From: Octopus sinensis | Lineage: Eukaryota | Length of the DNA: 64,000 bases | Assembly (NCBI RefSeq): GCF_006345805.1 | Contig: NC_043007.1 | Coordinates: 46,996,001-47,060,000, forward strand | Direction of reading: 5' to 3' | Shown here: piece by piece, positions 9,619-57,798 of the stretch | Layout: every line of letters starts with the position of its first letter | Position numbering within the stretch: the stretch's first letter is position 1 | Made by a program: the position numbers and the translations under genes | The notes under the pieces: generated by a model | Database searches by the model: none | What the model was told of the DNA's origin: nothing | What the model saw: only the letters and a program-made list of their open reading frames with translations

Positions 9619-11660
9619 GTCACACAGTATACAATATCGTGAGGTTGTTGATCGTAGCTATTACGTCTACTAGGAGTCTGTATTGTCTGTCAGGTTACAA
9701 CAATGACCTCAGACATACAGTACTTTACGCAATATACGTGCAGTCCCAAGTAATGCCAATTTTTGAAATACACCCAGATTGTAGGGTATTTCTAAAGTTT
9801 CAGATGTGCTTTTCAGATTGGGTGTTATTGAACCCAATACTTCGATGACAATAGGGATAACCTTTATGTTTGACTCTCGTAGCTGCCACATTTTAGCTAT
9901 CTCTATTTTCAGGTCTTCACAGTTATCAGTCTTTTCTCTTTCTTTCGTGATATGTTGATCTCCTGGCACAGCCGCGTCATCTATTAGGCACTCTTGTTTC
10001 TCCCCCCTAAAGATTATTATATCCGGTCTTCGGTGCTCTAATACATTGTCTGTCTGGTAGTCAAAGTCCCAGAAGATTTTTGCTTTCTCCTTTTTGTCCA
10101 TTACCTTTCCAGGTGTATGTTCGTACCAAGCACTCGTAACCTCATATCCGTACTTACAACATAGATACCAATGGAGGTTTTCAGATACCTTGTGGTGTAT
10201 GCGCTCGTACTCTTTCTGTGTAATATTTTCACAAGCACTAACAATGTGAGTCACAATTTCCACCCTCTTTTAGGTCACCACGATGATGCTTCCTGGTCAA
10301 AATTCATGAGCACTCTCAAGTCCATTTTTGTTAAATTCTTCTGCATTAGGAGCATACTGTAGCGGGTCTTGTTTGCTGTTCACCAAATATTGTTATGTTT
10401 CTTCTTTCACTGCTGATGCCCTCCGTACGCTATTCAGCCCACGTCCACTTTTACCATCTTCATGTAGAGCCTGTGTACATTCACCTTAGGGTGGGGAGCA
10501 CCATACATTGTCATTATCTTTCGGGTACTACAATCGAGTTGGTTAATCTCCGCTTGTGTCCATTTCAGGATGCGTGATCTATAGCGGACTACAACAACCG
10601 CCCTTATGCTGATGGCATTCACAAGATTCCTTGAGTTGAGGTTTGATTTCAAGGGACGTTTAAGGAGCTTGAAATATACAATGATGACGTCGTCGTTCAT
10701 TTCTTTTTGCAAGATATTGTCCAGCTCCAGTATCCCAAGATACTTCAACCCATCATCAACCGGGTCTTCCATTATCCCTTCCTTTGGCAATTATATGCCT
10801 CTGCAATTTACTTATTTCCCCCGATTCACAGTAAGCAACGCACACTTCGATATATGGAATTCCATCCCAAATACCTTGCTGCAAATTTACAGTCTCACCC
10901 AGCCTCTCTATTTCAGTTTCTGTTTTGGCAAACAGTTTTAAATCATCCATGACAAGAAGGTGGTTGAGACGAAGTTTATTCTTTCTCAGCTCACAGTGCG
11001 TGTAAACTTTGCGTAGGACTACAGAAAGTGTGAGAAAGGCTATAACAAATAACAGAGGTGAACAAGATTCTCCTTGGAAGATACTTATTTTGATTGTTAC
11101 CTCGTCTAAGTGCTAGTTGTTACAGGAAAGACGTGTTTTCTAACTAGGCATGCTGTTCTTAATCAGTGCACACACGTTCTCAGCTATTCCACACATGTTG
11201 AGTAAGCCTTTTTAAAGTCTATCCAGGCATGCACAATTTCTTTTTTTGGTACCGTTTTTAGTTCTTCATTACAACCTTGCCTACAAGGTGGTCCTTTGTA
11301 GCCTTGCATACTTTTCGGCACCCCTTTTGTTCTAATGGAAGTATATTGTTTTCCGCAAGGAACGTATATATTGTCTATGCAGGGATGCCTGTTATCACTA
11401 TCCATAAGAAGTTGAGTCAAGCAACGGGTCGGTAATTGCTAACCTCATTACCCATTGACCGGTCTTCAATCAACAATGATGTCGTTCTCTCTACAATCTA
11501 AACCGGAACTGCTCCACACTGTAGGCACACTCTCAAATTGCAACGCAAAGACGCTTGTGTGTTGACCTAAACCACTTGAGCCAGTAGCCTTGAATTACGT
11601 CTGGTACTGCTGCTTCCTAGTTTAGCAGTTTTGATACCTGTGCAATTACATTTTCCGTTG
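9618..11660 (-). mobile_element. Decayed R4/Dong-like non-LTR retrotransposon (RT plus restriction-like endonuclease)
   Basis: MDDLKLFAK, KYLGILE, HIVSAC..H and RRPDIII..LIDDAAVP..KEREK motifs. The 3' UTR abuts (TAA)n at 9571-9617. Confidence 0.85.
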
Positions 11661-25008: not shown

Positions 25009-25057
<49 letters not shown>

Positions 25058-25058
<1 letters not shown>

Positions 25059-25610
25059 GAGAAAGAAGCAACAAGAATGGATTGGTTTTTAGTACAATTG
25101 TTTCATACAAAGACAGGCTTTATTACAAGTTGCAAAAATTGCAGCAGATAAAAGTGTCCCGTACTCATCAGCTAAAATACATTTGAGTTCTCTAGACATC
25201 TTAGTGGGTGAGGTTATATTCATGAAATATTGGAGATAGTTCCATTAGAGGCAGATATAGGTTGTAAACAGTTATATATTTCTTGCTAATACAACAAAAT
25301 TCTGTCTGCAACAGTTTAGATGTGAAATGAACCGATGTGTGACCAACAGCTTTCCTTATGTCTCCTGGAATTTATATTTATATCTGCATCTTTATGGATG
25401 GATTTACCTTCTATGAGAAGTTAACAAACATTTTAAAAACATTTTTTTAAAAACTGTGCATTATTAGGAAACATTTTAAGTCTGCTTATTATCTGGCTTC
25501 AAATTCATAGAACTCTTAATACTTCATATGGATAGTTACATTATCTAGGATGTCTGGAAAACATACATGTGATTTAGCTGATGAATACTGGACATTGTAT
25601 TTGCTGCAAT
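25058..25610. mobile_element. Non-coding PLE-like unit with inverted HHR-bearing ends
   Basis: Full HHR on the minus strand at the left end. A diverged partial plus-strand copy (tttagctgatgaatactggaca) lies at ~25545-25610. Flanked by (TA)n. Confidence 0.65.
25087..25177 (-). ncRNA. Type I hammerhead ribozyme with long stem II (family B)
   Basis: Minus strand: ttttag-CTGATGA-gtacgggaca...tgtctttgtat-GAAA-caattg-TA-ctaaaa. Palindromic stem III, GUA triplet. Confidence 0.82.
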
Positions 25611-30079: not shown

Positions 30080-32283
30080 AAGAGCCAATGAAGATACACA
30101 CAGACTATCGTAGTGGCGCGAGATGTACTACATATTCAGCTGTTCACTACCAGTGAACTAATGTAACACCTCTTAATTTTCGAGCACCTTCCGGAGTATT
30201 CCAGCGGTTCCAGGCAGTGCTGTTTTCTCCACCCTTATTGCAGCCCCTATTTGTTCCACGTACGTCTCGAGATTTTTGCTCATTGTTCCCAGGGATCCGA
30301 CAATTATTGCTACTACTGCTATCTTTTTCATCGACCACAACTGCTTAAATTCCCAATCTAACCTGTCATATCTCCCGACTTTTCTTTCTTTCTTATCGCA
30401 TACCTTGTCGGCTGGGCATGCTATATCTATGGTCCAGCGTAATTTGTTTTCTTTCAGAATTAAGACTATGTCCGGCTTCCTGTTCTCTATCTCATGGTCG
30501 CAGTGAATCATAAAATCCAATAGGATCTTTGCATTTCTATTTTCGATGATGCCTTCAGGTTTGTGGTCGTACCAAGTTTTTGATCTGTGAAGTCCATACT
30601 TGTTGCAAAGTGTCCAATGGACAAACCTGGCTATATGGTTGTGGCGTCTCTTATATTCCTTCTGGGCTAGTGGCATACGTTAGCTGGTAATATGCCATAC
30701 GGTTTCACCGTTTTGTTCACAGATTCTGCATTATCACTTTCTGCTGTGTTGTCTATTTTGTATTGTATGTAGTTTGTTCTTAGTGCTTGCTCTTGGACAG
30801 CATAGATTAGAGTCTCCGTTTCCGGTTTTAAACAATTTTTGTCATCCACAGCCTTCTTTTTTCTCTGTTGGTCATATCTTCAACATCCCTATGAAATTGA
30901 TCATGCATTCTTTTCTTTACCCACCTATTTTCAGTTTCATTCGTTTTCAATTTCTTGTATATTACTTTATCTTTGCAATCTTTTAACCTACACAAACCTG
31001 ACCTTCTTACTTCTAATAATAGCGGTTCCGTGGCATTTTTTGCATACCATGCTATGTTTTTATCTTCTGCTCTACTGCTGTGTTCGCATCCAATAAGTTC
31101 TCTTCCCCCTACTTTCTTGGTAAATACTGACTGTCTGTGTCACATTTTGGGTGGAATGACCCATTTCTAGTTAGCAACTTCCTTGTCTTTCTGTCTAAGC
31201 TGTTTAATTCCTCTACTGTCCATGCGATTACCCCTGCTCCATATCTAAGGAGTGAAACTGTCAAGGTGTTGATAGCTTCGATCTTATTCTGTCCATTAAA
31301 TTCCGACATAAGGATTAGTCTCAGTCTGTGCAAGCACTCCACCTTAAATTTTTCTGTCATTTCTTTCTCCAACAATTTATCCATTTCCAAAATCCCCAAG
31401 TACCTGTAGCCCGTCTCTTCTGTCTGCTTCATAACCTCCCCCGATGGTATCGCTAGCCCGCTCATACTTTTGATTTTGCCTTTTTTCAAGAATATCACAC
31501 ACTTTCTCAGTCCGTACTCCATTCTGATATTAGAACTGAAGGTATACGCCATATCAACGAGGGAACTGACTTGGGTTTCATCTTTACCATAAAGTTTGAG
31601 GTCACCTATGAATAACAAATGGTTGACTTTTCGTTGGCGGCTTTTGAATACATACCCAGCTTTTGCTTTCCTCAGAATCAGTGTTAGTGGTATCAAGCAC
31701 AGTACAAAGATCTGTAGGGACACTAATCTTTGTACTTGGAAGATACCCGTCCTAATCTCTACTGTCCCTAAACTTCTTCCGTTTGCTGTCAGGTCCGTCC
31801 TCCAATTTGCCGTACTTTTTCCAAGCAATCACTCAACATTCGATGCAATACAAAATAGGTTCATAATTCATAATACAAGAATGTGGGATCATATCGTACG
31901 CTTTACAATAGTCGATTTATGACAAGGTTAAGTTACTTTTCTTCCTCTTGCAGTCTCTCAGTACAATTTTATCTATCAGGAGTTGATCATTGGTACCTCT
32001 GCACTTACGCTTGCAGCCCTTCTGCTCCTGTGGCAGGATTTCATTTTTTTCTAGATGTTCGTAGATTGAATCTGCGAGTATTCCAATCAATAACTTCCAC
32101 ATAAGTGGCAAACAGGATATCGGTCTGTAAGTGTCTACTGTATTGCCTTTTTCGATGTTTTCAGGCACATCACTGTCCTACCCAATGCCAATCACTCTGG
32201 TCGGCATTTAACAAGGTGTAGAGTTGCGCAGCTATTCGTGCATGACATTCCCCAAATCTGTTGATCCAGTTGCTTTGAACACC
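30080..32283 (-). mobile_element. 5'-truncated R4/Dong-like retrotransposon
   Basis: [38 protein letters not shown] and RKPDIV..IDIACP motifs. The 5' end abuts (TAA)n. Confidence 0.88.
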
Positions 32284-32303
32284 ATTATTATTATTATTAT
32301 TAA

Positions 32304-32346
<43 letters not shown>

Positions 32347-32361
32347 ATTATTATTATTATT

Positions 32362-34860
32362 ACATTTTTTTTCTTCTTTCAAATTTGCTTCCATTTCTTG
32401 CCGAGTGTCTTCCCGACTCCTAGGGCAAAGAAACTCATAGTATACATTGGTAAGCCATTAAACCAAACTCAGTAGTTCGTTTATTTTTTTATTTTTTTTT
32501 TTTTAAAGTTAAATTAAAATATATGAGCAGCAACAGTTCTCACATCGACAATGCTCTTCTCAATACGTGTGATGTACCAGTTAAGACAATCTTTTGCACT
32601 TCTTGCAGGGATGGTAAGCCAGGGATCATTCTCATATAATTTTCGGTTCCCTTCTTGATCATTCCTAGTGCTCCTACGATCACTGGTATTGTAACCGCCT
32701 TGAGATGCCACATTTTCTCAATTTCAATGAGTAGGTCTTTATATTTTCTGAGCTTGTCAAACTCTTTCGCTGAGATATTATGATCACAGGGGATGCTCAT
32801 GTCGATCGATAAGCAAACTTTATTGTTTTAGTCTTTCACAACAATATCTGGTTTATTGGCCTTGATGGGTCGGTCTGTATGTACTGGAAAGTCCCACAGA
32901 ATGGTTACATTTCCTCTTTCAGTTGCAGCCTCAGGGTGGTGATTATACCACTTGTCGGCAGTTTTGATATTGTAATGCCGACTTATTAGCCAGTGGAGAT
33001 ATTGGCCAACTCTGTCATGTCTTAATTTATACTCCACTGGTGCTAAGACTTTACATCCAGAGATTAGATGGTCCACTGTTTCAATCATGTCGTTGCAGAA
33101 TCGGCATTTTGGGTCTGCTCCATTTTTCATCACATTGGCCTGGTAGTTCCGGGTTAATAGGCTTTGATCTTGAGCAGCCAGGATGAAACCTTCGCTCTCT
33201 GCTTTTAGCCCTGAGCTCCGTAGCCACTGATGGGTTTGCTTCTGGTCAACATCAGCTTGTTTGCTGCGGGTCACATATTTGCCGTACAGAGGTTTCTCCT
33301 CCCACCTATCAGCCAATTGCTCGTGCGCTTTTTTCATTGCCATCATTTTCACCTTCTTTGCAACAATAGTTGCCGTACTTCCCTCGGTTGTTCAGTTTGG
33401 GTATCCTGCACGAGATCAATAGCAAATTTTTTGCTTTCCTTTATGATAGAATGAAGCTTCTTTCGTCTCTCGTGATTTTCCACGAGCTTTAGCATCCAGT
33501 CATTCGATATTTCGAGATATTTGGCCAGTCCAATTGTGGTTGTTTTGTAAGCTAGTTCAAATTGGATCAGGCCTCGACCTCCTTGGGCTCTGGGAAGGTA
33601 AAGGCGATCTACGTCTGCCTTTGGGTGGTGCATCCTATTACAACTCAGCAGCTTGCGTATTTTCCTATCTATATTCTTTACTTCACTCATATTCCAGTTC
33701 AACACATTGTAGCTATAAGTAACAACTGGAACTGCTAAGGAATTTATAGCTAACACCTTGTTACGTGCATTTAGTTCAGATTTCAGGACTGCACGAACTC
33801 TCATATACATTCCTTCCTGATTTTCTCTTTCATGCTTGCATGCTGAATACCAGAGCCTTCATTTATCCCTAAATATTTGTATGTTTGTTCTTGCTCAAGC
33901 TCTCTTATGACTGTGTCAACATCTAACACGACTGAATTTGTGGTCTTCACTTTCCCTTTCTGGAAAGTGGCCTTGGCACACTTCTCAAGTCCAAACTCCA
34001 TCCCGATGTCATCGCTGAATGATTTCACGGTGCGCAATAGGCCTTCAAGTTCATTATTGTCTTTACCATAAAGTTTTAAGTCATCCATATAAAATAGATG
34101 GCTTATTTTTTTATTGGTAATTTTATACCCATACTCTGTTCTGTTTAATTCACTTGTAAGGGGTATTAGGCTATGCAGAATATTAAAGGTGAAAGTGAGT
34201 CACCTTGAAAAATTCCACAGTTGATGTTTATATTTTCTGAGGCAAGTACTCCATTAGAGTGGTATAATTGGAGATTCGTATTCCACAACGACATATTGTG
34301 CTTCAGGAAGTTTGAAATCACAGGGGAAATTTTGAAGATGTCCAGTGATCTCAAGATCCATTGATGCGGTATACTGTCGAAGGCCTTTTTATAGTCAATC
34401 CATGCGGTGCTGAGATTTCTGCGCTTGTGACAGTTCTCAAGGATCATACGATTAATTAGCAGTTGATCTTTGCATCCTTATGAGCCTCGGCGGCACCCTT
34501 TTTGTTCATTGGGGAAAATATCGTTCTTCTCCATGAATGCATATGTTTTCTCCGCCAGGATAGATGTTAGGATTTTATACGTGGTGGATAAACAGGTTAT
34601 AGGCAGATAGTTTTTTGGAAGTTTGGTTTCGTTATTCTTTGGTAGTAGGTAAGTAATACCACTTGCTAACCATTCAGGTGTTTTCTTTGGCTCTCTCATA
34701 ATTCCATTTAGCAGCTGAACTAGCTTACCGTGTGCGCATGGGAGCGATGCGAGCCAGAAATTCGGCACCCTATCTTTACCGGGGGATTTCCAATTATAGA
34801 CCTTCGTGAGTGCCTTTCTTAGGTCTGCTATTGTGATGTCTTCCCATGCTTGTTGTTGTA
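32362..34860 (-). mobile_element. 5'-truncated, relatively young R4/Dong-like retrotransposon
   Basis: Near-continuous RT (WIDYKKAFDS, GIFQGDSLSPLIFC, MDDLKLY), CRFC..ETVDHLISGC..RHD and KPDIVV..D..K motifs, split by a few frameshifts. (TAA)n on both sides. Confidence 0.92.
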
Positions 34861-35069
34861 AATTATTATTATTATTATTATTATTATTAGCAGTAGTAGT
34901 AGTATTATTGTTATTATTATTTCGGTGTGAATGGTCTTTTATACGGCGCCGAGTTTACAATCCTGTAAAAAATAATTGTGGTATTTTTATATAAGCATAA
35001 AGCAATGACTAAAGAAAATAGTCTAATAAAAAGATATATAAGCCCGCGACAGAAAAAAGAAGGCTTTCC

Positions 35070-35588: not shown

Positions 35589-35995
35589 AAGGCGGTGAGC
35601 AGGCGGAAACGTTAGCACGCCGGGCGAAATGCGCAGCCGTATTTCGCCTGCCGTTACGTTCTGAGTTCAAATTGCGCCGAGGTCGACTTTGCCTTTCATC
35701 CTTTCGAGATCGATAAATTAAGTACCAGTTATGCACTGTGGTCAATAAAATCGACTTAATCCGTCTGTCTACCCTTGTTTGCCTCCTCTGTGTTTAGCCC
35801 CTTGTGGGTAGTAAAGAAATAGGTATTTCGCCTATCGCTACCCTCTGAGTTCAAATTACTCCGTGGTCGACTTTACCTTTTATCATTTCGGTGTCGATGA
35901 ATTAAGTACCAGTTGAGTACTGCAGTCGCTGTAACCGACTATCTTCCGCCCCAAATTTCAGGCCTTGTGCCTATAATGGAAAGGATTATTATTAT
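35589..35995 (+). mobile_element. tRNA-derived SINE with internal duplication
   Basis: A-box/B-box-like head (ggcggtgagc..gagttcaaat), conserved gtcgactttgcctttcatcctttcg..gataaattaagtaccag core, (ATT)n tail. Confidence 0.85.
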
Positions 35996-35999
35996 TTTT

Positions 36000-36555
36000 G
36001 AGTGATAGAACAATGCATGCCATCAAAGTGATACTGGGGTAAAATATATGAAGCCCACCATATACCCATCATGACTACCCGTCTGATAAGGGTACACCAG
36101 GCACATGCATCACAACCATGCGCGACATGGTGATCTCATATCAAGATAAACGGCACATGACCTTTTAGATGGGGCCTAATTAGAATTTTCTTCTGGTCGA
36201 GTAGCCTATCCCGCTCAAAAGGTCCCTGAAGAAGGATTGTTTAAGGATGTTGAAAGAAAGCACCCATGTATCCAAAGGTGAATTATCCAAACCTCCAAAA
36301 ATCCCTCTCAACACATGGCTATGACGCTCCTCCACTACTTCTGCTTATGATCAGAGACGCACATATCGTCAGCCACTAAGAGACATGGTCAACTGGTTAA
36401 GGTCAAACAACTGACAAGCAAATCTGTGGTACTGGGGAAAATATTTGCTGTAGCCCATCTTTTATACCAAGGCAAAACAATGTACATGATAACACTTCCA
36501 ATTAGTTAAGATCAGCAGCCATGACAGCCACTGCCTGGTACTGCATCAGGGCACT
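36000..36555. mobile_element. ~555-bp non-coding interspersed element, copy 1
   Basis: Same boundaries as, and high similarity to, 36572-37128; bounded by (TTA)n. Confidence 0.75.
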
Positions 36556-36571
36556 TATTATTATTATTATT

Positions 36572-37128
36572 GAGTGAGAGAGCAGTGCATGCCATCAAAG
36601 TGACACTGGGGTAAAATATACGAAGCCCAATATACCCATCATGACTACCCGTCTGATAAGGGTACACCAGGCACATGCATCACAACCATATGTGCGCGGC
36701 ATGGTGATCTCATATCAAGATTAACAGCACATGACCTTGCAGGTGGAGCCCAGTTAGAATTTTCTTCAGGTTGAGTAGCCCATCCCGCTCAAAAGGTCCC
36801 TGAATAAGGGTTGTTTAAGGATGTTGAAAGAACCACCCAGGTTTCCAGAGGTGAATTATTCAAACCCCAAAGAATCCCTCTCAACACATGGCTATGATGC
36901 TCCTCCACTACTTCTTCTCGTGATCAGAGACGCACATATCGTCAGCCACTAAGGGACGTGGTCAACTGGTTAAGGTCAAACAACTGACAAGCAAATCTGT
37001 GGTATTGAGCAGAATATTTGCTGTAGCCCATCTTTTATACCAAGACAAAACAATGTACATGATAACACTTCCAATCAGTTAAGATCAGAAGCCATGAGAG
37101 CCACTGCCTGGTACTGCATCAGGGCATT
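36572..37128. mobile_element. ~555-bp non-coding interspersed element, copy 2
   Basis: gagtgagagagcagtgcatgcc...ggtactgcatcagggc between (TTA)n tracts. Confidence 0.75.
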
Positions 37129-37149
37129 TATTATTATTATTATTATTAT

Positions 37150-41752: not shown

Positions 41753-41791
<39 letters not shown>

Positions 41792-42058
41792 GCAATTAAG
41801 GACAACTACTTAATAAGGAAAACTTAACAAGAAATTGTCAGGTAGATAGCGTGAAAACCTCATAAGAGAATAAATTTCGAAAATAATTATTTCTTATTGA
41901 ACATATTAATCTATATATAGAGGGCATTATACATACATGCCAGAGGGCATTATACATACATGCCACACGCTAAGAGGGACAATTAGTCATTTCTACCAAA
42001 AATATTACTAATCCCACCGAATGCAATTTTTCAAAGTAAGACATTTAAAAAATATAGA

Positions 42059-42100
42059 CCTGTATCACAGTGATTTCATACTTACGTATTCATCAGCAGG
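42059..42100 (-). ncRNA. Type I hammerhead ribozyme, array 1 copy 1
   Basis: Minus strand reads CCTG-CTGATGA-ATAC(GTAA)GTAT-GAAA-TCAC(T)GTGA-TA-CAGG: intact core, stems I/II/III paired, AUA cleavage triplet. Confidence 0.92.
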
Positions 42101-42534
42101 CCTGAATGTATCATAAATAAACGACCCTGCCCCGCTTAAGCCGATCAGCTAACTGATCAACATCAACGAAGCACATGGGTGAGTTTACATATATTACATC
42201 CTGTAAATGGCATACTTTTACGAATTGCATTTCGGGAAAGGAAAAGTTTTTTCGGAATAAAAATTTAGCAATTAAGGACAACTACTTAATAAGAAAAACT
42301 TAACAAGAAATTATCAGGTAGATAGCGTGAAAACCTCATAAGAGAATAAATTTCGAAAATAATTATTTCTTATTGAACATATTAATTTATATATAGAGGG
42401 CATTATACATACATGCCAGAGGGCATTATACATACATGCCACACGCTAAGAGGGACAATTAGTCATTTCTACCAAAAATATTACTAATCCCACCGAATGC
42501 AATTTTTCAAAGTAAGACATTTAAAAAATATAGA

Positions 42535-42576
42535 CCTGTATCACAGTGATTTCATACTTACGTATTCATCAGCAGG
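42535..42576 (-). ncRNA. Type I hammerhead ribozyme, array 1 copy 2
   Basis: Identical to 42059-42100, 476 bp away. Confidence 0.92.
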
Positions 42577-43010
42577 CCTGAATGTATCATAAATAAACGA
42601 CCCTGCCCCGCTTAAGCCGATCGTCTAACTGATCAACATCAACGAAGCACATGGGTGAGTTTACATATATTACATCCTGTAAATGGCATACTTTTACGAA
42701 TTGCATTTCGGGAAAGGAAAAGTTTTTTCGGAATAAAAATTTAGCAATTAAGGACAACTACTTAATAAGGAAAACTTAACAAGAAATTGTCAGGTAGATA
42801 GCGTGAAAACCTCATAAGAGAATAAATTTCGAAAATAATTATTTCTTATTGAACATATTAATTTATATATAGAGGGCATTATACATACATGCCAGAGGGC
42901 ATTATACATACATGCCACACGCTAAGAGGGACAATTAGTCATTTCTACCAAAAATATTACTAATCCCACCGAATGCAATTTTTCAAAGTAAGACATTTAA
43001 AAAATATAGA

Positions 43011-43052
43011 CCTGTATCACAGTGATTTCATACTTACGTATTCATCAGCAGG
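43011..43052 (-). ncRNA. Type I hammerhead ribozyme, array 1 copy 3
   Basis: Identical to 42059-42100. Confidence 0.92.
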
Positions 43053-43282
43053 CCTGAATGTATCATAAATAAACGACCCTGCCCCGCTTAAGCCGATCAG
43101 CTAACTGATCAACATCAACGAAGCACATGGGTGAGTTGAAAAATTGCATTCGGTGGGATTAGTAATATTTTTGGTAGAAATGACTAATTGTCCCTCTTAG
43201 CGTGTGGCATGTATGTATAATGCCCTCTGGCATGTATGTATAATGCCCTCTATATATAAAATATATATATATATATATATAT

Positions 43283-53921: not shown

Positions 53922-54451
53922 TATGTATATGTATATATATGTATGTATAAATACAAAAACGGAACAATGTTACACAAATATAAAAACAATAAAAATACAA
54001 TAAAAATAATAACAGGATATAAATAAACAAGTGTCGTTCGACTAAAGACGAACTGAATTAAGCTGGCGCGAGTGGAAATGAAGCCTTACGGCAGAGATAC
54101 AACAATGTCACAAACACAGGGAAAAATATCGATGTTGCACGGACAACTGTCAGACCAACAAAGAAAGAACAGGCTTGGCCGTGGTGGTCAGAGAGAGAAG
54201 TAGAAGCAGGGGGACGGAAGAATTAGGGAGGGACGAGGAAAAATGACAGGGACACAGTGTAGTGAAAAGTGGAGGCAAAGCGAGTAAGAAGAGACGGCAA
54301 AGAAATGTGAGAGAGGCGAAACAAAAGAACGAAGAGTGGAATGAACGAATAAGCGTGAAAGGGCTGACAGACAGAAATAGAGTCGTACAAGATTTAGTAA
54401 AATGTGTCCTTACATATAAGAGACCAAATTGTACGTGCGCCGCTATATATG

Positions 54452-54483
<32 letters not shown>

Positions 54484-54756
54484 AAAATTTAGCAATTAAG
54501 GACAACTACTTAATAAGGAAAACTTAACAAGAAATTGTCAGGTAGATGGCGTAAAAACCTCATAAGAGAAAAAATTTCGAAAATAATTATTTCTTATTGA
54601 ACATATTAATTTATATATAGAGGGCATTATATATACATGCCAGAAGGCATTATACATACATGCCAAACGCTAAGAGGGACAATCAGTCATTCTACCAAAA
54701 ATATTACTAATCCCACCGAATGCAATTTTTCAAAGTAAGACATTTAAAAATATAGA

Positions 54757-54797
54757 CCTGTATCACAGTGATTTCATACTACGTAATCATCAGCAGG
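54757..54797 (-). ncRNA. Type I hammerhead ribozyme, array 2
   Basis: CCTG-CTGATGA-TTAC..GTAT-GAAA-TCACTGTGA-TA-CAGG on the minus strand, with a 1-nt deletion in loop II. Confidence 0.8.
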
Positions 54798-55230
54798 CCT
54801 GAATGTATTATAAATAACACAAACCCTGCCCGCTAAGCCGATCAGCTAACTGATCAACATCAACGAAGCACATGGGTGAGTTTAAATATATTACATCCGG
54901 GTAAATGGCAAGCTTTTACGAGTTGCATTTCGGGGAGAGGAAAAGTTTTTTCGGAATAAAAATTTAGCAATTAAGGACAACTACTTAATAAGGAAAACTT
55001 AACAAGAAATTGTCAGGTAGATAGCGTAAAAACCTCATAAGAGAAAAAAATTCGAAAATAATTATTTCTATTGAACATATTAATTTATATATAGAGGGCA
55101 TTATATATACATGCCAGAAGGCATTATACATACATGCCAAACGCTAAGAGGGACAATCAGTCATTTCTACCAAAAATATTACTAATCCCACGAATGCAAT
55201 TTTTCAAAGTAAGACATTTAAAAATATAGA

Positions 55231-55271
55231 CCGTATCACAGTGATTTCATACTTACGTAATCATCAGCAGG
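55231..55271 (-). ncRNA. Type I hammerhead ribozyme, array 2
   Basis: Same motif with a 1-nt deletion in stem I. Confidence 0.78.
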
Positions 55272-55706
55272 CCTGAATGTATTATAAATAAAAACAACGA
55301 CCCTGCCCCGCTTAAGCCGATCAGCTAACTGATCAACATCAACGAAGCACATGGGTGAGCTTACATATATTACATCCGGGTAAATGGCAAACTTTTACGA
55401 ATTGCATTTCGGGAGAGAAAAGTTTTTTCGGAATAAAAATTTAGCAATTAAGGCAACTACTCTAATAAGGAAAAATTAACAAGAACTTTGTCAGGTAGAT
55501 AGCGTAAAAACCTCATAAGAGAAAAAATTTCGAAAATAATTTTTCTATTGAACATATTAGTTTATATATAGAGGGCCATTATATATACATGCCAGAAGGC
55601 ATATACATACATGCCAAACCTAAGAGGGAAATCAGTCATTTCTACCAAAAATATTACTAATCCCACCGAATGCAATTTTTCAAAGTAAGACATTTAAAAA
55701 TATAGA

Positions 55707-55748
55707 CCTGTATCACAGTGATTTCATACTTACGTAATCATCAGGCGG
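55707..55748 (-). ncRNA. Type I hammerhead ribozyme, array 2
   Basis: Core intact; the 5' strand of stem I is altered. Confidence 0.7.
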
Positions 55749-56029
55749 CTGAAGTATTATAAATAAACAACGACCCTGCCCCGCTTAAGCCGATCAGCTA
55801 ACTGATCAACATCAACGAAGCACATGGGTGAGTTTACAATAAAAATTTAGCAATTAATTGCTAAATTTTTATTCCGAAAAAATTTCCTCTCCCGAAATGC
55901 AATTCGCATAAAGTTTGCCATTTACCGGATGTAATATGTAAACTCACCCATGTGCTTCGTTGATGTTGATCAGTAGCTGATCGGCTTAAGCGGGGCAGGG
56001 TTCGTTGTTTATTTATAATTACATTCAGG

Positions 56030-56070
56030 CCGCTGATGATTACGTAAGTATGAAATCACTGTGATACAGG
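56030..56070 (+). ncRNA. Type I hammerhead ribozyme, array 2 inverted arm
   Basis: ccg-CTGATGA-ttacgtaagtat-GAAA-tcactgtga-TA-cagg. Confidence 0.78.
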
Positions 56071-56505
56071 TCTATATTTAAATGTCTTACTTTGAAAAAT
56101 TGCATTCGGTGGGATAGTAATATTTTTGGTAGAAATGATATGATTGTTCCCTCTTAGCGTTTGGCATGTATGTATATGCCTTCTGGCATTGTATATATAA
56201 TGCCCCTTATATATAAATTAATATGTTCAATAAGAAATAATTATTTTCGAAATTTTTTCTCTTATGAGGTTTTTACGCTATCTACCTGACAATTCTTGTT
56301 AGTTTTCCTTATTAAGTAGTTGTCTTAATTGCTAAATTTTTATTCCGAAAAAACTTTTACTCTCCCGAAATGCAATTGTTAAAAGTTTGCCATTTACCCG
56401 GATGTAATAATATTGTAAACTCACCCATGTGCTTCGTTGATGTTGATCAGTTGGCTGATCGGCTTAAGCGGGGCAGGGTCGTTGTTTATTTAGAATACAT
56501 TCAGG

Positions 56506-56547
56506 CCTGCTGATGATTACGTAAGTATGAAATCACTGTGATACAGG
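56506..56547 (+). ncRNA. Type I hammerhead ribozyme, array 2 inverted arm
   Basis: cctg-CTGATGA-ttacgtaagtat-GAAA-tcactgtga-TA-cagg. Confidence 0.85.
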
Positions 56548-56768
56548 TCTATATTTTTAAATGTCTTACTTTGAAAAATTGCATTCGGTGGGATTAGTAA
56601 TATTTTTGGTAGAAATGGACTGATTGTCCCTCTTAGCGTTTGGCATGTATGTATATGCCTTCTGGCATGTATATATAATGACCTCTATATATAAAATATA
56701 GATAGATATATATATATATAATATAAAAGTATAACTCCACACTAAGATGTCTAGAGAACTCAAATGTA

Positions 56769-56856
56769 TTTAGCTGATGAGTACGGGACACTTTTATCTG
56801 CTGCAATTTTTGCAACTTGTAATAAAGCCGTCCTTGTATGAAACAATTGTACTAAA
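56769..56856 (+). ncRNA. Type I hammerhead ribozyme with long stem II (family B, second locus)
   Basis: tttag-CTGATGA-gtacgggac...gtccttgtat-GAAA-caattg-TA-ctaaa. The host segment 56725-56887 matches 25058-25220 in reverse complement. Confidence 0.85.
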
Positions 56857-56898
56857 AACCAATCCATTCTTGTTGCTTCTTTCTCGTTTATATATATC

Positions 56899-56932
<34 letters not shown>

Positions 56933-56993
56933 ATATATATTTAGTGAAGGAAGAAATGGAGCTGAACGAAGATTCTACAGAATTCCTTTTATT

Positions 56994-57079
56994 ATTTTCT
57001 ACACATGTTTCAAAGGCCGCAAATTTCCAAATTCGGACTGAATAAGGAGACCATTTTGCAGCTTTCTCTTCAGGAAAAT
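56994..57079 (-). ncRNA. Type I hammerhead ribozyme, long stem II (family C, left arm)
   Basis: Reverse complement of 57463-57548 with one stem II substitution that keeps pairing as G-U. Confidence 0.85.
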
Positions 57080-57462
57080 CCAGGAATTTAAAACTCCAAA
57101 ACAAATGCGCATCAAGGTATTCGAACAAAACGCTCCTTAGGAGCCCATGAAATAGCACAAAACTGTCTCTCAATTTGCGTTGATGTCAGGGGGGGTGGAG
57201 GCCGACGAAAAAGTCCGTTGGAATAAATCAGGTCAAACTGCGGTCAAACCTGGTAGTGGAAGAAATACTGAAAACCAAAGGGTGTGAATATATTCTGTAT
57301 AACTAATGCTAATGTTCGGAATGTTTTAAGAATTAAGGCTGTCTTATTTAAGGTGTGAGAACCTGCCTACATGTATGTGTGTGCGCTCCTGTGTATGTGT
57401 GGGAAGGAGCGTTTTGTTCGAATACCTTGCTGCGCATTTGTTTTGGAGTTTTAAATTCCTGG

Positions 57463-57548
57463 ATTTTCCTGAAGAGAAAGCTGCAAAATGGTCTCCTTAT
57501 TCAGTCCGAATTTGGAAATTTGCAGCCTTTGAAACATGTGTAGAAAAT
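57463..57548 (+). ncRNA. Type I hammerhead ribozyme, long stem II (family C, right arm)
   Basis: attttc-CTGAAGA-gaaagctgcaaa...tttgcagccttt-GAAA-catgtg-TA-gaaaat. Distal stem I extension aattcct/aggaatt. Confidence 0.87.
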
Positions 57549-57798
57549 AATAAAAGGAATTCTGTAGAATCTTCGTTCACTCCATTTCTTCCCTTCACTA
57601 AATATATTAAAGTTCAATTATCCGCGCTAAGGCACGGTTGCGACACCCCAAGGTCGTAACTCCAACCGTGTTTTTTCTGTTGTGATTTTTGCTACCCAGG
57701 TATCGGTTAAATTTTGAATAATCCTTAACAAGATAATTCATTTATCCATTTCAATATATATATATATATATATATATAGATGTATGTATGTATGTATG

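Follow-up and report, generated by a model that had tools for sequence, protein, structure and literature searches.

Metazoan non-LTR retrozymes, as described in the available parts of PMC7229834 and bioRxiv 10.64898/2026.07.22.740005, are dispersed multi-copy arrays of low-GC tandem units without open reading frames, each unit carrying a type I hammerhead ribozyme and giving a highly self-paired predicted RNA. The unit was first described as 150-450 bp long and measures 51-972 bp in the 2026 preprint. Penelope-like elements (PLEs) have been proposed as the mobiliser of retrozymes in both works, whose accessible text leaves open which enzyme mobilises those of animals and from what template. 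Insertions of PLEs themselves are reported to form partial tandems, to include a 5'-truncated copy in inverted orientation, to have a tail of 30-40 bp at one of their ends and to favour (TA)n (PMC8557442, available in part). In work with a purified PLE protein, nicking and extension took place on both strands of AT-rich DNA, with starts at two internal RNA sites which bound the tail, and the hammerhead of a lizard PLE was dispensable for insertion in vitro (PMC11167929, available in part). In the sections of PMC8557442 and PMC11167929 at our disposal the origin of the tandem and inverted structures of PLEs, and of their one-sided tail, is treated as an open question.

The stretch analysed here (the window) comprises 64,000 nucleotides of AT-rich animal DNA from contig NC_043007.1 of the 2.72-Gb Octopus sinensis assembly (GCF_006345805.1) and contains two arrays of one ~476-nt unit, a length slightly above the range first described for retrozymes and inside that of the 2026 preprint. 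Array 2 (54481-56698) is an inverted insertion of this non-coding hammerhead repeat, a non-LTR retrozyme, in which ~4.6 copies with a period of 475-476 nt are arranged head-to-head and set in (TA)n. The left arm (54481-55838, ~2.85 units) has the ribozyme strand on the minus strand, and its outer 3' end, at a unit position termed site A, carries a tail of ~125-130 nt. The right arm (55854-56698, ~1.75 units) has the ribozyme strand on the plus strand and its outer 3' end at site B, without the tail. Remnants of the target are found on either side, (TA)n at 54444-54483 and a (TA)-rich stretch at 56699-56726. The five type I hammerhead cores are located on the minus strand at 54761-54793 (core 1, with a 1-nt assembly gap in loop II), 55234-55267 (core 2, with a 1-nt gap in the 3' strand of stem I) and 55711-55744 (core 3, with the 5' strand of stem I garbled), and on the plus strand at 56033-56066 (core 4, with a 1-nt gap in the 5' strand of stem I) and 56510-56543 (core 5, intact, with the predicted cut after 56543). 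This layout agrees with the first-pass annotation, made from the sequence alone, which had described a second array of the same monomer with a central inversion and five hammerheads distributed over both strands. The same annotation had pointed to scattered indels as a sign of poor polishing, and array 2 is indeed among the noisiest segments of the family, with 49 indel bases in 2218 (a rate ranking 73rd-lowest of 81 segments, median 0.5%); four of its five ribozymes have a small assembly defect and core 5 alone is letter-perfect.

The arms meet in a perfect 36-bp palindrome (55838-55873). The claimed palindromic junction, centred on 55855/55856, is therefore present, but no long mirror extends beyond its 18-bp arms, past which the left arm picks up ~68 nt further along the unit. 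Seventeen additional bases on the left side of the junction are an antisense copy which starts exactly at site A; they could have arisen by fold-back fill-in, by a restart at site A, or by a fold-back with loss of 68 nt afterwards. Contigs of four runs matched to 55740-55960 left positions 55844-55851 uncovered in all four cases, these contigs being ~60-nt pieces from filtered records of animals which may differ. Two further repeats are located next to array 2, a pair of 205-bp inverted repeats (98% identity) which adjoins it at 56935-57607 and a 196-bp repeat at 56730-56921, the inverted copy of which lies at 25023-25218.

The hammerhead motif was matched eight times in the window, five times in array 2 and three times in array 1, compared to no match in 100 shuffles. 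It is composed, in order, of a 7-bp stem I, a CUGAUGA core, a 3-bp stem II closed by a U.U pair, GAAA, and a short near-palindromic stem III, an arrangement which we take to be that of a type I hammerhead. The U.U pair at the base of stem II recalls the axolotl ribozyme HHR_Amex2, as far as the description available to us goes. A scan of the window against Rfam gave no match at the gathering threshold, and the 66-nt ribozyme folded alone was no better than its shuffles (z -0.39); stem II is weak, and this weakness, like the dispensable hammerhead of the lizard PLE, counts against the mechanism preferred below. Across 77-78 insertions the 5' strand of stem I and the core positions are near-invariant and neighbouring positions vary, conservation within the 29-nt search pattern being discounted as the sample was selected on that pattern. 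The A or G variants at the stem II base, like a change from G.U to G-C in stem I, retain or improve pairing. Double-sided changes were found at five of six stem I pairs across three families, and only 1-2 of 500 shuffles matched this in what is a small test of four sequences. On these features of pairing and conservation, the unit is predicted to encode a type I hammerhead and a self-cutting RNA.

Tandem hammerheads, a short unit of low GC content (31-36%), dispersal in the genome, a self-paired RNA and the lack of any open reading frame of at least 150 aa in the arrays identify the repeat of array 2 as a non-LTR retrozyme. The RNA of the whole unit, taken from array 1, has a predicted fold of -133 kcal/mol (z -6.2), and none of 100 shuffles was equally stable. 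As no frame for a reverse transcriptase (RT) with GIY-YIG endonuclease is present in the arrays or attached to them, the element is non-autonomous. In four runs presumed to be RNA, the contigs cover 27-30 of the unit's 30 bins, and in three of the four the end of the unit is joined to its start, a result which a tandem transcript or DNA would give equally; among the runs carrying the unit, none is recorded as RNA.

Array 1 (41787-43268) belongs to the same family, with another subfamily haplotype and three hammerheads. It has site A on the left, site B on the right and an inversion at 43137, so that the inversion is not a peculiarity of array 2. Elsewhere in the window, broken reading frames at 9709-10269 and 30173-34954 look by eye like pieces of non-LTR retrotransposon RT and endonuclease, and a tandem duplication of ~570 bp with 91.5% identity is present at 35985-37144.

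A 29-nt stretch of the ribozyme was searched in the whole genome, where it has 2095 exact matches (control 0). The first 100 of these matches fall into 40 loci, and an estimate of roughly 800 loci for the family follows by extrapolation. Mapping covered 77 regions: the two arrays, the 36 regions scoring best against array 2, and 39 loci taken from contig 1 in order of position, the 40th contig-1 locus being already within the best-hit set. Because regions were chosen as best hits to array 2 or by an exact 29-mer, the sample leans to young, long copies. A script defined 81 segments, of which 53 read minus then plus, one minus-plus-minus-plus, 27 were on a single strand and none read plus then minus. 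The outer 3' ends sit at two unit positions, A and B, ~125-130 nt apart and each leading into (TA)n, and an A end was combined with a B end in 47 of the 53 inverted segments.

Curation by eye merged interrupted or duplicated loci and reduced the 81 segments to 78 insertions: L039 and L111 were each counted as one insertion that other elements interrupt, the segments at L035 and L098 proved to be local duplicates, and three odd ends were recast as B ends in units without one 23-nt repeat. The B arm of L036 is only 25 nt long. In the curated set 55 of 78 insertions are inverted, all of them head-to-head; 53 of the 55 combine A with B, one end is destroyed in the remaining two (L056 and L130), and neither A+A nor B+B occurs. 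The 23 uninverted copies end at B (15), at A (7) or elsewhere (1). In the position-ordered sample of contig 1 alone, 28 of 40 copies are inverted. The A arm is the longer one in 32 of 47 A+B insertions, and either arm can dominate (A 185 and B 1600 nt, as against A 4918 and B 1197 nt). Both arms exceed one unit in 20 of these 47, for which a circle copied with strand displacement, or a long tandem RNA, is required as template. In the flank listings TA runs abut the outer 3' ends, giving an AT-rich or (TA)n target in which duplications of the target are unreadable. One of the two 23-nt direct repeats has been gained or lost in L035, L038, L045, L060, L125 and L131, sometimes differently within one array. 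The other elements inserted inside arrays, at L039:4461-5883 and L111:3172-4873, are unrelated to each other, and the one in L111 has a 473-codon frame which by eye is similar to a retrotransposon ORF1.

The head-to-head inverted, 5'-truncated copy and the tail extension at a single end are the footprint of PLEs, which accounts for the inversion and had escaped the first-pass annotation. In the available text of PMC8557442, PMC3846280 and PMC11167929, endonuclease-bearing PLEs share with our element the partial tandems, the head-to-head 5'-truncated copy, the one-sided tail, the (TA)n bias, palindromic junctions in some copies and two RT start sites. The octopus element differs from them, as there described, in being free of protein, in having several units in both arms, in the length of the tail (~125-130 nt against 30-40) and in the near-obligate pairing of a tailed with a tail-less end over its 55 inverted copies. 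Compared to retrozymes, the inverted arms, the fixed paired ends and the (TA)n targets are absent from the descriptions given in the accessible parts of PMC7229834 and the 2026 preprint. The retrozyme class and the PLE layout have each been published already. For a quantified rule of end pairing, or for inverted, end-paired retrozyme arrays with a long tail, our search found no paper, few subscription papers being within reach.

The variants within the arrays are informative on the template. Arrays 1 and 2 show 11 differences over 429 well-covered sites, which include the three substitutions named in the first-pass annotation and eight more. These three do separate the two arrays; they are not array-specific, being subfamily alleles which recur at other loci, and the alleles of array 2 are the majority allele in 19, 15 and 20 of 41 contig-1 segments. 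Array 2 has zero differences from L032 and L033, array 1 has zero from L129, and neither array has a private fixed variant among the sampled loci. The argument for one template per array that had been built on the three substitutions is therefore wrong, and the homogeneity of array 2 says little by itself as its haplotype is common (among its best hits, cross pairs match fully in 82 of 500 cases). At the level of the family, the haplotypes of the arms do bear out a single-template event. The number of substitutions per site is 0.0057 for pairs from one arm (n = 347), 0.0062 for pairs from opposite arms (n = 228) and 0.0418 for pairs from different insertions of contig 1 (n = 7845). Comparison at 36 subfamily sites gave 7 mismatches in 519 when both arms belonged to one insertion, and 5210 in 13462 when they came from different insertions of contig 1; among the sampled monomers variants thus cluster by locus, the point raised by the proposed check, instead of being shuffled among loci, and both arms derive from one haplotype. 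All shared subfamily sites agree between the arms in 15 of 21 contig-1 insertions and in 23 of 551 cross pairs. Furthermore, 15 of 54 well-covered insertions have between them 20 fixed variants which no other sampled locus shows, the sample amounting to about a tenth of the family; 14 of the 20 are fixed in both arms. A minor allele is carried by two or more units at 19 sites, with a periodic distribution in five long arrays and an arm-specific one in two or three; array 2 has no such site.

Our preferred reading, to which we give a probability of about 0.6, is that array 2 was written in one event by the borrowed RT-endonuclease of a PLE, from one RNA, probably a circle, with priming on both cut strands. 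Units would be transcribed, excised by their hammerheads and ligated to a circle of ~476 nt. The GIY-YIG endonuclease would nick both strands of a (TA)n target, and each 3' end would prime reverse transcription at one of the two internal AT-rich start sites ~125-130 nt apart. Both enzymes would then run a variable number of rounds with strand displacement, and the joining of the two cDNA ends via short microhomology or a short templated patch would give the inversion. If one end were left unextended, the copy would look uninverted and 5'-truncated. Two-ended priming on one RNA would bring the polarity, the A+B rule, the independent arm lengths and the shared haplotypes into one scheme. The components of this reading differ in strength: that array 2 is a real, single insertion of the PLE type is highly probable, priming from two ends is to be preferred over a fold-back with good confidence, and for the template we lean towards a circular over a linear tandem RNA. 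Rolling-circle copying of a circle is an inference, as a homogeneous tandem transcript would look much alike.

Twin priming of L1, the original paper on which reportedly dates from 2001, was also considered. It produces two cDNAs from opposite strands of the target on one RNA (PMC2837659, available in part), and the inverted insertion with cDNAs joined internally is similar to what we observe. Unlike L1 inversions as described there, the octopus arrays have no poly(A), the second primer site is fixed, the arms may re-cover the same sequence several times, and ~70% of the sampled copies are inverted. Twin priming of the L1 type was rejected on the lack of poly(A) and on the two outer ends, both of which are fixed sites unrelated to the breakpoints.

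The junctions bear on the choice between two primers and one. Of 53 junctions, 31 show overlaps of 1-11 nt and some of the others have short additional patches, a picture which resembles microhomology-mediated joining. With an exact-match parser 17 junctions were clean, and 12 of these have at least 2 nt of microhomology where 19% are expected; this parser is confounded by subfamily substitutions (35 of 52 junctions were scored as inserts), and its insert counts were discarded. The alternative to two primers is a single priming followed by self-priming: by folding back or switching onto itself, the first cDNA would become the template of the second arm, and the product would be resolved by the endonuclease at the other of the two fixed sites. 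Self-priming has been suggested for head-to-head palindromic junctions of PLEs (PMC3846280, available in part). It would directly explain arms of the same haplotype, exact fold-backs at short palindromes account for four of 52 junctions (0.33 expected, P about 3e-4), and array 2 itself can be read as a fold-back at TTAA with a subsequent 68-nt deletion. The other 48 junctions, however, connect unrelated positions of the unit, and since either arm may be the longer one, each site would have to serve both as start and as cut site, and always as a complementary pair. We consider self-priming unlikely as the general explanation.

About as unlikely is a template in the form of a linear tandem RNA transcribed from a parent array, with later growth in place by unequal crossover and with circles as a by-product. 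Local amplification and unequal crossover are discussed, and local amplification suggested, in the available part of the 2026 preprint (bioRxiv 10.64898/2026.07.22.740005), and our data allow for it in part only. Homogeneous daughters are expected from a homogeneous parent, several loci share identical haplotypes, and in L040, L050, L057, L065 and L114 minor alleles recur every two or four units. These periodic alleles are signs of a later local duplication or of dimeric templates, and count against a pure one-step origin of the five long arrays. Array 2, in contrast, has no minor allele common to two units, the 14 variants fixed in every unit of both arms imply a bottleneck of one unit at some point, and the inversion and the paired ends are beyond the reach of local growth. 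The 5' breakpoints are scattered over the unit, with 8 of 126 within 10 nt of the predicted ribozyme cut and 5.5 expected, which speaks against linear cleaved monomers as templates. Both self-primed fold-back and linear tandem templates with local growth may contribute to the family alongside two-ended priming on a circle.

A long-read or assembly artefact, i.e. a fold-back chimera, had been suspected for the inversion, and the noise of array 2 as well as the 36-bp palindrome at its junction would fit such an origin. A chimeric read, however, would mirror the whole arm together with its flank and be blind to the ribozyme strand, and here the ends are different fixed sites with unlike flanks. 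A simple tail-to-tail arrangement occurs in none of 54 multi-orientation segments, and the same layout is found in array 1, in a sister family and in an autonomous PLE. With polarity and end rules holding family-wide, this type of inversion is biological, the inversion in array 2 is very likely real, and an artefact is highly improbable. An origin of the two arrays by segmental duplication, which the first-pass annotation had likewise argued against, or as uncollapsed alleles of a single locus can be practically dismissed in spite of their near-equal left arms (1357 and 1356 nt, breaking at unit positions 194 and 192), since their 2-kb flanks show no similarity, their 11 fixed differences belong to haplotypes each found intact elsewhere, and their right arms are unequal (133 nt in array 1, 845 nt in array 2). 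The two left arms lie 11 kb apart in the same orientation, and their similar length despite the haplotype differences may be due to chance or to a stall site.

The genome carries thousands of GIY-YIG candidates. A young PLE family (L166-L227) has an intact 781-aa frame with RT and GIY-YIG domains, many near-identical copies, and ends in (TA)n. In 20 of its regions, picked by best match to its 3' end, all six inverted copies have a hairpin tail of ~37 nt on exactly one arm. The (TA)n ends and the one-sided tail constitute a footprint common to this PLE and the retrozyme. A motif scan found no canonical hammerhead in the 781-aa family. PLE-linked loci were sampled around GIY-YIG hits and PLE 3' ends (150 of 5029 and 150 of 18843 candidates scored), and the search for a partner extended, besides the 781-aa family, to a 775-aa family and to loci identified by means of a third endonuclease. 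None of 147 PLE-linked loci contained an autonomous PLE with significant similarity to the unit, the best score being 88 compared to 68 +/- 9 for shuffles, 12 of 300 of which scored as high. A profile of three retrozyme families had no match to PLE sequence in 117 PLE loci, a further 30 loci overlapping with those sets; its sole match, in L217, belongs to a distinct retrozyme fragment situated 3.2 kb away from the PLE. In the PLE-linked loci sampled, no significant homology of the retrozyme to a PLE pseudo-LTR (pLTR) was found. The 47-nt AT-rich resemblance of site B to the 3' end of the 781-aa family is not significant, and this family is not supported as the partner PLE, the similarity of its end to the unit being not significant. 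Another PLE-like family (L264-L272) has more than 1 kb of conserved, TG/TA microsatellite-like sequence after the endonuclease.

The sister retrozyme family (L228-L247, contig 1) is ~74% identical to the one described here; its unit of ~475 nt has a longer stem II, and its arrays end at the homologous counterparts of sites A and B. Its search pattern gave 1255 matches, including those of a third, more distant family present in L242.

The RT start site is the same for both strands in the available part of PMC11167929, and the pairing of A with B therefore has no biochemical explanation so far. We tentatively raise, without yet favouring it, the possibility that two-ended priming is obligate for PLE enzymes, with a dimer nicking both (TA)n strands and making one cDNA from each of the RNA sites which define the tail, so that the arrays would be the double rolling-circle product of one RNA. 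If true, this would explain the inverted-repeat structure of PLEs with its one-sided tail, and would provide genomic proof that PLEs mobilise the retrozyme circles of animals. With an intact enzyme of the candidate type in the same genome, both open questions, that of the retrozymes and that of the PLEs, can be put to the test with a small RNA circle on a (TA)n target. Inversions of this kind should not be thrown out as long-read chimeras. The array 2 locus is an ordinary, noisy member, and its value is in the rule to which the whole family conforms, the family offering hundreds of young, haplotype-tagged insertions under strict end pairing.
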